From assembly GCA_000995065.1 (NCBI GenBank), contig LBWX01000003.1:22304-86303 (forward strand): a DNA stretch of 64,000 nt. Direction: 5' to 3'. The stretch is from a candidate division CPR2 bacterium GW2011_GWC2_39_35. Its GTDB lineage: Bacteria; Patescibacteriota; CPR2. Positions 16,310 to 29,246 of this stretch are shown one piece after another. How positions within the stretch are numbered: the stretch's first letter is position 1; every line of letters starts with the position of its first letter. A model generated the notes under the pieces. It saw only the letters and a program-made list of their open reading frames with translations. It made no database searches and was not told the DNA's origin. The position numbers and the translations under genes are program-made.

Positions 16310-16698
16310 AGAACTGGATTCGCAAGAAATGCTAAAGCGGTACTTAAGCCAATATTCTGCTTTTCCCTAAGCTTTAGTAAATACTTAATCAAAGCAAAAT
16401 CCGCAAGGCCAATAATAGCAAAAGTTAGGATAAAGGTAAAGACTACATTACTAAAAACCAAAAAGGACAAAAAGATTGAGATAAATGCAGCCACCGCCGA
16501 TGCCCCAACGACCCCGACCACTGCTGGCCATACGATTTTTCCTTTTACTACAAATTTAAGATAGAGAACGAAAATAGCAAAATTAACGGCATAAAAAAAT
16601 GCAAAAAAGACCAGGAGCGATGGGATCATCTGACCTACTGACGCAATGAGCGGTGAAGATGCTTGCGCATTTTCTAAGTTGCTTAACGATTTATTCAT
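16288..16698 (-). CDS. hypothetical membrane protein (3-4 TM)
   Basis: 136 aa, hydrophobic; ATGA overlap with the upstream 121-aa ORF. Confidence 0.4.
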   Translation of the reverse strand: MNKSLSNLENAQASSPLIASVGQMIPSLLVFFAFFYAVNFAIFVLYLKFVVKGKIVWPAVVGVVGASAVAAFISIFLSFLVFSNVVFTFILTFAIIGLADFALIKYLLKLREKQNIGLSTALAFLANPVLWLVIIS

Positions 16699-17060
16699 AC
16701 TAACCTACCTTTTTTAGATAATAAAAATATTTCAATTAGAATAAAGGCTGTGATTAGGAAAAAGCCGTCCCAAAACCAAAGCAAATTCTGAGATTTAAGA
16801 ATCGCCAAAGAAGTCACCACTATTCCTATAAAAATACCTTCGCGAATAGAGGCTTTGGGCATCTCTATAAAAGTAAGGGATTTTCTTATCTGAAAAGCCG
16901 CAAAAGAACCGATTGAAAAGCCGCTCATAAAGATAAGACCAAAGAATAATACAATTTGCATGAAACCTGCCTTCCATGGATCGACATAAAACAGAAAATA
17001 TAATAAGCCGACTAGCGACAAGAAAACATAAGTTAAAATTTTCATAGAAAAAATACTCAT
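16695..17060 (-). CDS. hypothetical membrane protein (3-4 TM)
   Basis: 121 aa, hydrophobic. Confidence 0.4.
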   Translation of the reverse strand: MSIFSMKILTYVFLSLVGLLYFLFYVDPWKAGFMQIVLFFGLIFMSGFSIGSFAAFQIRKSLTFIEMPKASIREGIFIGIVVTSLAILKSQNLLWFWDGFFLITAFILIEIFLLSKKGRLV

Positions 17061-17112
17061 TGTAATTTAATTATAGTTCATTTTCATTTATTTTGCCAAC
17101 AGAAAGGTCGAA

Positions 17113-17142
17113 TAAAAAATACCCAAACTGGGTATTTTTTAT
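17113..17142. terminator. bidirectional intrinsic terminator-like hairpin
   Basis: AAAAATACCCA-AACT-TGGGTATTTTT: an 11-bp stem flanked by A-run and T-run, so T-rich on both strands. Confidence 0.6.
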
Positions 17143-17512
17143 CTACTATGCATTAAAGATACATAGTTTAACTCCCTACAGGTGGTAGAGAGCCATTGGA
17201 AGATAGCAACAAATAAACCTTACCCTCCAATAAGTTAACTACCACTCCTTTTTTAAAATAAGGTACAAATCGAAATAATTCCTTTTGCTTGCCTCTTTTA
17301 TTTTTGGGCTTGCTTTTTATTTTTGTGTTTAAAGGTTTTTTAAACCTCAGATTATTTAAAACAGTAGGGAAAGTCCAGATTAGAAATAAGGGGGGTACTT
17401 CTAACCTGGGCTTTCACCCACCATTTTTCGCTCCTTCTTAAGCTTCAAATGGCAAGCCAATCGTGATAAGCAAGCCCTTGACATAAGCTATTATGAAACA
17501 GATGTGTGAAAC
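17143..17512 (-). ncRNA. candidate non-coding RNA locus of unknown identity
   Basis: Minus-strand TTGACA-17/18-CATAAT promoter at 17478-17512 lies about 340 nt upstream of the bidirectional terminator, with no ORF over 14 aa between them. The plus strand carries RNase-P-like CR-I (GGGAAAGTCCAG at 17366-17377) and CR-V (ACAGAATCTGGCATA at 17544-17558) motifs with a compensatory CCAG/CUGG change. Identity and strand are unresolved. Confidence 0.25.
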
Positions 17513-17667
17513 ATGTCAATAAAAAAATTGTGAATAAGCAAAAACAGAATCTGGCATAAAGTATTTAGAATATAGGATAAGAATATAGGGCTTAGAATTA
17601 AGAATTATTAGGGCTTTAATATCCTCTAGATTCTTTATTCTATATTAAAGATTCCAAATTCCAGATT

Positions 17668-18726
17668 CTACTCTGCTGGCTTATCCAGCTGCAGAAGTTC
17701 CGAATCTAGACCCTTGCCGGTAATCTTGGTCACATCTTTATCTATCTTTACAAATTCCTTATTGGCTTCGTTATAGGCATTAACCGAAGTCTCTAAAGAC
17801 CTTCCTAATTTAGAGACATAAGTTTGGTAAGCGTTTAAATGATTGCCAAGCTTATGAATATTATCCACGATATCATTAATTGATTCCTGAACCTCCAAAG
17901 CTCGAAGTCCCTGCAAAACGGTCTGTAAATAAGCCGCTAAAGAAGTTGGAGAAACAATTATGACTTTCTTGTTTGTTGCATAATCAATTAAATCTCTGGT
18001 GTTCACTTTTAAGGTTCCCACTTGGTTTACAAGCAAATCATAATAAATTCCCTCCGACGGAATGAACATAAAAGCAAATTCCATCGTTCGCTTCTTGGGC
18101 CGGATATACTTCGCCGTTTCATCAATTCGATTCTTTAAATCCTGCTTAAACAACTTCTGAAGCGATTCACACTTAACTGCGTCTTTTTCTTCGCAAATTT
18201 TATTATAGTTTTCCAAGGAAAATTTAGAATCAATCGGCAAAACTTTGTCTTTTATAAAAAGAACGGCATCGACAATCAGCTCCTTGCCCGTCTTTTCGTC
18301 CGTGCCAAGACTGTATTGCATTTTGTAGGCATTAGGAGAAAAAAGATTTTTAAGGGCTGTTTCTAGATAATATTCCCCCAAAACCCCTCTTTGCTTCGGA
18401 TTTTTTAAGATGTTTTCCAAGCCCTGAAGCTGCTCCGTTATCCCTACCACTTGTTTATTGGTATCTTCCAGCTTAGTTAGTTTTTCGGTTACGTCCCTTA
18501 TTATTCCGGCACTTGACCTAAATTGCTCCTGAATTGTTTTAGATGATTCTACAAGGCCCTTACTTAACTGTTCCGAAACTTGGTTTAGCTGCTGCTGCAA
18601 TAAAAGCACGCTCTTGTCATTTTCTGAATTTATTTTTAGATCGCTGAGCCTCTTATTAATTAAAAAAATGATTACACCAAAACCGGCAACCACAATTGCA
18701 ATTAAAATTATAAACGATTGATCCAT
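17668..18726 (-). CDS. rmuC: DNA recombination protein RmuC
   Basis: 352 aa; N-terminal TM, long coiled coil, C-terminal nuclease-like region typical of RmuC. Confidence 0.75.
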   Translation of the reverse strand: MDQSFIILIAIVVAGFGVIIFLINKRLSDLKINSENDKSVLLLQQQLNQVSEQLSKGLVESSKTIQEQFRSSAGIIRDVTEKLTKLEDTNKQVVGITEQLQGLENILKNPKQRGVLGEYYLETALKNLFSPNAYKMQYSLGTDEKTGKELIVDAVLFIKDKVLPIDSKFSLENYNKICEEKDAVKCESLQKLFKQDLKNRIDETAKYIRPKKRTMEFAFMFIPSEGIYYDLLVNQVGTLKVNTRDLIDYATNKKVIIVSPTSLAAYLQTVLQGLRALEVQESINDIVDNIHKLGNHLNAYQTYVSKLGRSLETSVNAYNEANKEFVKIDKDVTKITGKGLDSELLQLDKPAE

Positions 18727-25384: not shown

Positions 25385-25524
25385 GACAAAAATACAATAT
25401 AGAATTTGGAATTTAGTATCTAGAATAGGAATGAAGAATAAAAAAATTTAGAATTATTCAGCACTACATTCTGTATTCAATATTCCTATTCCAAATTCTA
25501 AATACTACACTCTAGATTCTTTAG

Positions 25525-26079
25525 CTAGAATTTCACCTCGACATTTTCCCTCTCCTCCGGATTTTCTATCTCAAACAACTCTTTCTTTTGAAAGTGGAAT
25601 AATGAGGCAATTATACTAGAGGGAAATTGCTCAATACTTATATTAAGGTCTCTGACATTGCCGTTGTAGAACCTTCTTGAGGCCTGAATTTTATCTTCGG
25701 TATCGGTTAATTCATCCTGAAGCTTCTGAAAATTATCCGAAGCCTTTAAATCGGGATAATTTTCTGCCACCGCAAATACCGATTTTAAGGCGTCCGTTAA
25801 CACATTTTCTGCCTTGCCTTGCTGCTCAATGCTCCGAGCATTAATAGCTGAAGTTCTAGCTTTGGTTACTTCTTCAAAAACGCTTTTTTCATGAGTAGCA
25901 TAACCTTTTACCGTTTCCACTAAGTTCGGGATTAAATCATGCCTTCTTTTCAATTGGACATCTATATCGCTCCAAGCTTCTTCCGATCTCGTTCTTAGTG
26001 ATACCAGCCGGTTAAAAGCAAAGACAATATACAGGCCAAAAACAATTGCGAGAATAGCAACTATCAAAAGTGGGTTCAT
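25525..26079 (-). CDS. lemA: LemA family protein
   Basis: 184 aa; N-terminal TM then [33 protein letters not shown], a typical LemA sequence. Confidence 0.85.
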
Positions 26080-26662: not shown

Positions 26663-26783
26663 ATTAATTACCCCTTTTTACGATTTCATTATAGCACACC
26701 TTCCAAAATGGTAAAGCTAGTTAGCAATGTTCTTAATAACAAGCTAATTGATCCAATTTATAACGAAATCCCCCGATTAACTA

Positions 26784-28145: not shown

Positions 28146-28234
28146 TTTTAGAATTAAGAATTATGAATAACGTATAAAGAACATACAAAAAAATAATACT
28201 TAATTCTTAACTCGTTATTCTTTATTCCGAATCA

Positions 28235-28311: not shown

Positions 28312-28761
28312 TTATCGTAGGGCAACTTGATCCGGTGCAATTATTTTGCCGAAATCATCCGCTCTTTCAGCCGTTTGATCGTTGATTCCCAGACTTAGAT
28401 AGCTACCATCAGCGGCCTTAAAATCCCAAAACTTTTCCGATTCACCCTTTTTAAATATCTCTTCTCCGAACGTCTCTTCAGCAGTCGCACGAGCAGTAAA
28501 AAGAAAATCAAGCCTCTTTCCCATAAATTCCAGGCTTTCTGGAAAGGGCTCCTCAAAAGGAGTCTCAATCGGTTTTACCAAAATATAACTATTGGATTCT
28601 TCATCATCGGCAAACACATAACCGCCACTCAAAAAACATTTTACATAATATGTTCCATCATCAAAACGAAATTTAATAACTTCTTTTACAGAGAATTCTT
28701 TACCTTCAACCAGTAACTTCGCATTCGGTTTAATTTTTGAACGAAACACATTAACTTCCAT
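28312..28761 (-). CDS. hypothetical protein embedded in the tRNA array
   Basis: 149-aa ORF between tRNA-Gly and tRNA-Cys; acidic, no TM; no family recognised. Confidence 0.45.
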   Translation of the reverse strand: MEVNVFRSKIKPNAKLLVEGKEFSVKEVIKFRFDDGTYYVKCFLSGGYVFADDEESNSYILVKPIETPFEEPFPESLEFMGKRLDFLFTARATAEETFGEEIFKKGESEKFWDFKAADGSYLSLGINDQTAERADDFGKIIAPDQVALR

Positions 28762-28993: not shown

Positions 28994-29169
28994 GTGTTCA
29001 GATTTCGGATATCAGACATCGGATTTCTGAAAATCCGACCTCCGAACTCAGATATCTGACATCCGAATTTGGCTTGCCATTTGAAGCCATTCACGAAACT
29101 TGGTTGTTAAACTGAGCAGTCCTACTACGCTAAAGCTTCGTAGGACATTTTTCGCCTCGCGGCGAAAAA

Positions 29170-29246
29170 TGGTGGGCGCTACAGGACTCGAACCTGTGAC
29201 CTACTGGGTGTAAACCAGTCGCTCTAGCCAACTGAGCTAAGCGCCC
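29170..29246 (-). tRNA. tRNA-Val (anticodon TAC), CCA encoded
   Basis: The reverse complement GGGCGCTTAGCTCAGTTGGCTAGAGC...loop TTTACAC...GGTTCGAGTCC...GCGCCCACCA. Confidence 0.9.

Follow-up and report, generated by a model that had tools for sequence, protein, structure and literature searches.

A predicted small RNA with a conserved cytosine loop, encoded between rmuC and the pheS-pheT operon in CPR2/WS5-like Patescibacteria

The window analysed here, a 64,000-nt stretch of a contig from a candidate division CPR2 bacterium, contains a gene-free interval at 17061-17667, located between two genes on the minus strand. The absence of any ORF after rmuC had been pointed out in the original prediction, and both the ORF listing and the Pfam searches agree that no credible ORF is present. 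Upstream lies rmuC itself, and downstream a 121-aa ORF encoding a membrane protein, followed by a 136-aa ORF and then by pheS. When compared to shuffled sequence, the region is strongly structured on both strands, with folding energies of -130.1 kcal/mol (z -7.9) on the minus strand and -105.2 kcal/mol (z -6.2) on the plus strand, the better fold of the minus strand being due to G-U pairs. The earlier claim that a structured element is encoded here is supported by a minus-strand promoter placed so as to drive an RNA and by comparison to relatives, and the sequence features on which it was based are real, apart from small errors in their coordinates. The nearest relatives of the RmuC protein all derive from metagenome-assembled genomes of Patescibacteria and share at most 72% identity with it. 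An identical RmuC protein is encoded on contigs from Rifle groundwater, in which the intergenic region is that of the window, except for one contig with a 19-nt deletion. The features of the locus, in the direction of transcription, are the following:

17668-18726, minus: rmuC (Pfam RmuC, E 1.4e-51)
17541-17669, minus: AT-rich palindromic repeat after the rmuC stop codon, closed by AGAAUCUGG/CCAGAUUCU (an inverted repeat with a fold z of only -1.3)
17490-17519, minus: promoter of the small RNA, with -35 TTGACA at 17519-17514, an 18-nt spacer and -10 CATAAT at 17495-17490 (11 of 12 matches)
17358-17484, minus: predicted small RNA, short form, about 126 nt (start placed from the -10 box, end from the U tract)
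17358-17427, minus: long hairpin of 31 bp with two 1x1 internal loops (from folding and alignment)
17143-17357, minus: lineage-specific 3' extension of 215 nt (several hairpins, fold z -4.6)
17112-17142, both strands: perfect 14-bp hairpin, ATAAAAAATACCCA/TGGGTATTTTTTAT, resembling a bidirectional terminator, at the end of the extension
17070-17099, minus: promoter P2, TTGGCA-18-TATAAT, with a very short leader (11 of 12 matches)
16695-17060, minus: 121-aa ORF, membrane-protein gene (no Pfam match)

The TTGACA/CATAAT promoter on the minus strand, previously placed at 17478-17512, is real and has a spacer of 18 nt, but it is situated at 17519-17490, and the distance to the distal hairpin is about 370 nt and not the 340 nt given before. 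The short form of the predicted RNA consists of a 5' region with two GGCUUGC motifs, the long hairpin with its loop of cytosines and a terminal UUUU, and folds at -50.8 kcal/mol (z -5.3). The part of the hairpin that is conserved in the family comprises 23 bp (17418-17396 paired with 17388-17366) and is capped by a 7-nt apical loop, CCCCCCU, at 17395-17389, in which the six cytosines occupy 17395-17390. The hairpin is followed by UUUU and AAAU, the U tract being located at 17361-17358. Since this tract numbers 4 U only in the window, and these are paired with an upstream A run, termination at the hairpin may be inefficient. Judged from the sequence, a promoter of its own, an intrinsic terminator formed by the hairpin and the U tract, and recurrence in 11 species mark the element as an independent gene. 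Within the small RNA, on the same strand, a good Shine-Dalgarno sequence (GAAGGAG, 17437-17431) is followed after 6 nt by a 7-codon ORF, MVGESPG (17424-17401), which overlaps the 5' arm of the hairpin and is absent from relatives; indeed, neither this nor the other small ORFs on the minus strand are conserved in relatives.

Ten other species of Patescibacteria possess this gene, complete with promoter, hairpin, N-CCCCC-U loop and U tail. The first homologues, L004 and L005, were recognised on inspection of the sequence following rmuC in the closest relatives, where a TTGACA/TAnAAT promoter precedes a long imperfect hairpin with a five-cytosine loop and a U run. A hairpin scan then gave L002, and loci reached via RmuC homologues gave L089, L173, L175, L176 and L177, all with the homologous hairpin downstream of rmuC. 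No DNA similarity was detected between the whole intergenic region and 80 rmuC loci of relatives (blastn, nhmmer); homologues came to light only through inspection of the loci and through structure. A metagenome scan with RmuC as bait retrieved mostly distant relatives (53-62% identity), only one of which (L089) carries the RNA. For nine sequences, RNAalifold returned a 23-bp stem with a 7-nt loop, and a covariance model (R1) was built from these nine. R1 scores 66.3 bits on the minus strand of the window versus 24.2 bits on the plus strand, finds one copy in the 64 kb, and shows the same preference for the minus strand in every relative. Two members outside the training set were recognised by the model, L184 (88.9 bits, E 1.4e-21) and L185 (44.7 bits, E 2.5e-9).

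In the MAFFT alignment of the 11 species, 90.1% of the cells pair, compared to 34-41% when the partners are slid by 1-3 columns, and both partners have changed in 16 of the 23 stem pairs; on each of the five measures, all of 500 column shuffles fall short of the real alignment. All 11 species share, without change, the five cytosines, the A-U pair that closes the loop and the U after the cytosines, so that a conserved unpaired run of cytosines, N-CCCCC-U, tops the covarying stem. The sequence flanking the loop differs in a compensatory manner between the window (AGAAGUA-CCCCCC-UUAUUUCU) and the other species (AUAAGCAA-CCCCC-UUGCUUGU), and the upper stem is nearly invariant in the two main clades (GAAUCAUAAGCA.CCCCCUUGCUU.UGAUUC). 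The RNA gene is considered real because the hairpin is conserved among relatives, and comparative folding supports this view.

The promoter is also maintained, nine of the ten relatives having at least 10 of 12 matches at the corresponding position, which makes 10 of 11 species with the window included; that of L177, read by eye, is TTGACA-17-TTAAAT. The predicted start lies 43-63 nt upstream of the C run in 9 of 10 relatives and 88 nt upstream of it in the window, from which RNAs of 78-102 nt are predicted for the relatives, compared to about 126 nt for the window, the 5' region being poorly conserved. The gene is always located between rmuC and the operon of a ~122-aa membrane protein, pheS and pheT, with extra genes inserted in some species. 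In a third RmuC clade (L169, L170, L172) this gene order is kept and the RNA is absent from the same position. In phage and plasmid records no similarity to the C-loop RNA was found, and a search of IMG/VR with the exact apical 17-mer gave six hits, all of them unrelated short hairpins or bare matches of at most 23 bits. By these alignments and model matches, the family extends over CPR2/WS5-like Patescibacteria and comprises at least eleven species. It is not present in Rfam and is previously undescribed.

Some further observations were made at the loci of the relatives. At L184, the public gene call at 1894-2385 starts a 163-aa ORF (MSNPLACDS...) inside the hairpin of the small RNA; the start codon is probably mis-set, owing to the unannotated RNA, an example of gene callers placing spurious ORF starts inside the C-loop RNA. 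Between rmuC and the small RNA of L002 (5133-5268) and L004 (5074-5208) lies a conserved Cys-rich ORF of ~45 aa (M..CSECS.Y.EID.TKGDCFGHEV...). Six of the ten RNA-bearing relatives (L002, L004, L005, L089, L173 and L176) have a tRNA-Pro(CGG) gene at most ~1.1 kb upstream of rmuC, and RNAduplex gave no pairing above shuffled controls between the relatives' RNA and this neighbouring tRNA-Pro.

Two strings on the plus strand had been likened to the CR-I and CR-V motifs of RNase P RNA, joined in a compensated P4 pairing (CCAG/CUGG). Both are present as written, and CCAG could pair with CUGG, but each motif turned out to be one arm of a local hairpin and not a P4 strand. The CR-I-like string, GGGAAAGTCCAG at 17367-17378 (plus), corresponds, on the opposite strand, to the 3' arm of the minus-strand hairpin that covaries in 11 species, and its sequence varies among the homologous hairpins of the relatives. 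The CR-V-like string, ACAGAATCTGGCATA at 17544-17558 (plus), lies upstream of the small-RNA promoter and inside the AT-rich palindromic repeat after the rmuC stop codon, within the 3' arm and U tract of this repeat, and a second copy of this element occurs at 25.4 kb. The two motifs are 166 nt apart, where the P4 strands would be expected within a core of 300-400 nt, and the sole strong promoter nearby points the opposite way. Rfam 15 at gathering score identifies six tRNAs and one c-di-GMP-II riboswitch in the whole window and nothing else, with no match to RNaseP_bact_a, RNaseP_bact_b, 6S, tmRNA or SRP on either strand, and ARAGORN likewise detects no tmRNA in the window. A permissive Rfam scan of 16950-17800 (851 nt, both strands) yields noise only, such as microRNA models, and none of RNase P, 6S, tmRNA, SRP or T-box at E<=10. 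As no covariance-model match exists, the RNase P assignment is refuted, and an RNase P RNA, or a shortened RNase-P-like ribozyme, encoded on the plus strand is barely conceivable. The likeness of the region to bacterial RNase P RNA amounts to two short resemblances, on the wrong strand with respect to the promoter, with the wrong spacing and outside a P4 context. A false lead is thereby removed, as the region is not a minimal RNase P.

Other known classes were discarded in a similar manner. A T-box leader was considered because pheS-pheT lie downstream, and was rejected as no T-box match was obtained for the window region or for L175-L177, the latter matching no Rfam family at E<=1, and as a separate promoter is located between the hairpin and the gene. 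Membership in the 6C or RsaE families was rejected, there being no Rfam match at E<=10 here or at E<=1 in the relatives, and the C-loop RNA therefore at most works like them. A type I toxin-antitoxin system was also rejected, since the small ORF on the opposite strand is not conserved: the 50-aa plus-strand ORF at 17289-17441 has no Shine-Dalgarno sequence, no Pfam hit and no conservation, its frame being shifted among relatives because the loop has six cytosines here and five in the relatives.

The interpretation we favour, with a probability of roughly 0.55, is that the gap after rmuC holds a stand-alone small-RNA gene on the minus strand, the C-rich loop of which would pair with G-rich RNA sites. 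At the level of sequence comparison, the anatomy, the strand and the conservation with compensatory changes in 11 species are established. By analogy to 6C or RoxS, the RNA is most likely a trans-acting base-pairing RNA that operates via its C-rich loop. A sigma-70-type promoter (17519-17490) would set the start of transcription near 17484, and the hairpin together with the U tract would terminate it at about 17358. The 7-nt loop, N-CCCCC-U, would then be displayed at the hairpin's tip as the putative working part of the RNA, and this loop may pair, without a chaperone, with G-rich single-stranded sites, for instance ribosome-binding sites of the AAGGGGG type, and so lower the translation or the stability of the target. 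Read-through of the 4-U tract would probably carry some transcripts into the 215-nt extension, as far as the strong hairpin at 17142-17112. Candidate G-rich ribosome-binding sites are found in the window (for example at 26671, 50208 and 56411), AAGGGGG is not enriched there (4 sites versus 9.4 expected), and no targets of the loop or of the stem arms were found in the loci of the relatives.

The closest functional counterpart may be the 6C sRNA of Actinobacteria (B11 in Mycobacterium), which is also a small stand-alone RNA with hairpin loops of about six cytosines. These C-rich loops bind G-rich sites in mRNA targets directly, without Hfq, ProQ or other chaperones (PMC6486639), a mechanism that we infer for the RNA described here. 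However, 6C has two C-loop hairpins, a different sequence and a distribution in high-GC Gram-positives, whereas the C-loop RNA of low-GC Patescibacteria has only one such hairpin, with a far longer stem (23-31 bp). In Firmicutes, RoxS/RsaE and other C-rich sRNAs (IsrR, RNAIII hairpins) carry unpaired C-rich motifs that pair with Shine-Dalgarno regions, and, like the RNA predicted here, these sRNAs are encoded separately, each with a promoter and an intrinsic terminator of its own. They have several C-rich regions and known regulators and targets, whereas the C-loop RNA has one C run, targets that are candidates only, and no sequence or model similarity to them. On these comparisons, the C-loop RNA would belong to the known functional kind of C-rich-loop regulatory RNAs.

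Other explanations of the hairpin have to be weighed against this. The element is always found upstream of the membrane protein-pheS-pheT genes and in the same orientation, and the U tract in the window is weak, both of which would fit a cis-acting leader or attenuator of this operon, with most transcripts from the upstream promoter stopping at the hairpin and regulated read-through contributing to the expression of the operon. However, in the window the hairpin is separated from the downstream gene by promoter P2, which precedes the 121-aa membrane-protein gene with pheS-pheT beyond, and comparable promoters (TTG...-TG.TTATAAT) were read by eye in the same interval of the relatives. Genes intervene in L002, L004 and L173, one of them on the opposite strand, a further strong terminator lies in between in the window, and neither a match to a T-box or other leader model nor a Phe-rich leader peptide was found. 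A role as a cis-acting leader is made unlikely by the second promoter, by the intervening genes in some species and by the extra terminator in the window. The notion that the region has no RNA function at all, and is a DNA palindrome or the plain terminator of rmuC, draws on the presence of a long inverted repeat beside a gene end, and is highly improbable in view of the conserved promoter that the element possesses, the separate hairpin with a U run that follows rmuC, the strand-specific G-U pairs and model scores, and the invariant loop on a covarying stem.

If the upper stem and loop were themselves recognised, in an RNA that binds a protein, acts as a scaffold or serves as substrate for a double-strand-specific enzyme, this would in turn account for the unusual length of the stem (23-31 bp) and for the 31 nt around the loop, which are almost identical in clades with RmuC proteins that are only 73-77% identical. 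The near invariance of the upper stem in two clades gives a protein partner a small but real chance. Against it, the upper stem of the window has been changed by compensatory substitutions with the C loop kept, and the neighbourhood offers no consistent candidate partner besides RmuC and PheRS. One more alternative concerns this genome specifically, in which the RNA would be an antisense partner of a tRNA operon transcript located 11.6 kb from its gene, altering the processing of the pre-tRNA or being sponged by the spacer. The sites involved are the following:

17442-17460, minus: block 2, UUGGCUUGCCAUUUGAAGC, 19 nt, perfect complement of the spacer transcript at 29087-29069
17417-17431, minus: block 1, GCGAAAAAUGGUGGG, 15 nt, at the 5' foot of the hairpin, perfect complement of 29176-29162
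29069-29176, minus: remote partner, the 3' end of tRNA-Val(tac) and the spacer before tRNA-Phe, with two complementary sites

Block 2 is directed at a hairpin in the 176-nt spacer before tRNA-Phe, and block 1 at the CCCA-CCA that ends tRNA-Val together with 8 nt of trailer. The complementarity to the tRNA spacer is statistically solid, as 2000 dinucleotide-shuffled versions of the RNA did not once produce a 19-nt match to any part of the window. The two perfect blocks occur in the same order and orientation at both places, and since their flanks are unrelated and their spacing differs, a maintained pairing is suggested, rather than a decaying duplication. The spacer is strongly structured (z -6.4) as well as long, and the 3'ETS-leuZ of E. 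coli offers a precedent. On the other hand, the complementarity has been observed in a single species, the relatives of which carry different 5' regions; a patchy inverted duplication of recent date would look identical, and block 1 is buried in the stem of the hairpin. A functional antisense pairing of this kind is therefore a tentative and rather doubtful alternative to the stand-alone C-loop RNA. The tRNA-Val/tRNA-Phe spacer itself (28994-29169, minus) is unusually long and contains four to five hairpins, and may give rise to a stable RNA.

The 3' extension of the C-loop RNA is probably reached by read-through of the weak 4-U tract, and in this genome only. No relative has anything equivalent, coding signals are lacking, the sequence is not repeated in the rest of the window, and tblastn did not reveal the extension as a recognisable pseudogene of the ORFs that occupy the same interval in relatives. 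Two GCAAGCC-type sites in the extension, at 17315-17306 and 17297-17290, are complementary to the two GGCUUGC motifs in the 5' region and correspond to the nested long-range complementarities described earlier, which were recovered at 17306-17315/17468-17477 (10 bp, perfect) and at 17290-17296/17451-17457. The bidirectional terminator proposed at the far end of the extension was confirmed as a hairpin at 17112-17142, a perfect 14-bp inverted repeat. With an A run in one place and a T run in another along its arms, it resembles a bidirectional terminator, and it is part of the minimum-free-energy folds of both strands; it was not listed by a terminator scan of the window. In the strain variant L088, a 19-nt deletion (CAAAAATAAAAAGCAAGCC) between short direct repeats, at about 17303-17321 of the window, removes one of the two GCAAGCC sites, and thus represents variation at the population level.

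Combining these observations, the small RNA and the tRNA operon might form a regulatory pair, in which the RNA would clamp the unprocessed 3' end of tRNA-Val and the spacer by perfect duplexes of 15 and 19 nt, and the extension, having two copies of the target site, would act as a self-sponge. This combined scheme is speculative and, in our estimation, unlikely. The small-RNA gene adjoins the phenylalanyl-tRNA synthetase genes. If the scheme were true, the processing of a pre-tRNA, or a sponge derived from its spacer, would be tied to the activity of the RNA, and if relatives were to show matching complementarity, a conserved circuit of small RNA and pre-tRNA would exist in minimal-genome bacteria. 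Work by Lalaouna et al. from 2015 reportedly found that the 3'ETS-leuZ tRNA spacer of E. coli sponges the sRNAs RyhB and RybB. The likeness consists in a transcribed spacer of a tRNA operon with a site complementary to a small RNA, whereas in the present case there is complementarity alone, in one genome, and the pairing also covers the unprocessed 3' end of tRNA-Val; unlike for 3'ETS-leuZ, we know of no Hfq context for the RNA here. A functional pairing with the spacer would extend the idea of tRNA-spacer sponges well beyond enterobacteria.

Bacteria of the Candidate Phyla Radiation have tiny genomes with few classical regulators, and none can be cultured alone. To our knowledge, very few regulatory RNAs have been described in them. 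With its support from covariation, its fixed genomic address and its simple putative working part, a loop of five or six cytosines, the C-loop RNA offers a concrete entry point to post-transcriptional control in these bacteria, and R1 is a ready tool for annotating the family. The family is new and supported by covariation, and the putative link to the tRNA spacer, seen in this genome only, is the single unexpected element.

The AT-rich palindromic repeat between rmuC and the small-RNA promoter is terminator-like, because GUUUUUG follows its closing helix, and has a second, diverged copy at 25388-25528. Both copies are about 125 nt long, are made up of AGAAT/ATTCT units, end in TTTTT and are located just after a gene end (rmuC and LemA, respectively); the palindrome may represent a terminator-like repeat or else a small mobile element. 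A 17-nt identity on the minus strand, ATAATTCTTAATTCTAA, at 17592-17608 and 28148-28164, links the region upstream of the small-RNA promoter with a segment 5 to 21 nt upstream of tRNA-Leu(taa), and may be a shared promoter-proximal element. Elsewhere in the window, another long hairpin of 31 pairs (about 47810-47900, minus; -36.6 kcal/mol), whose large loop includes CCCCC, is not matched by R1. In the tRNA cluster, a 149-aa ORF at 28312-28761 (minus) lies between tRNA-Gly and tRNA-Cys and shows a weak match to DUF4178, below the Pfam gathering score. Finally, the cyclic-di-GMP-II riboswitch of this CPR2 genome, at 49075-49160 (minus), scores 62.4 bits, above the gathering score of 53.5.
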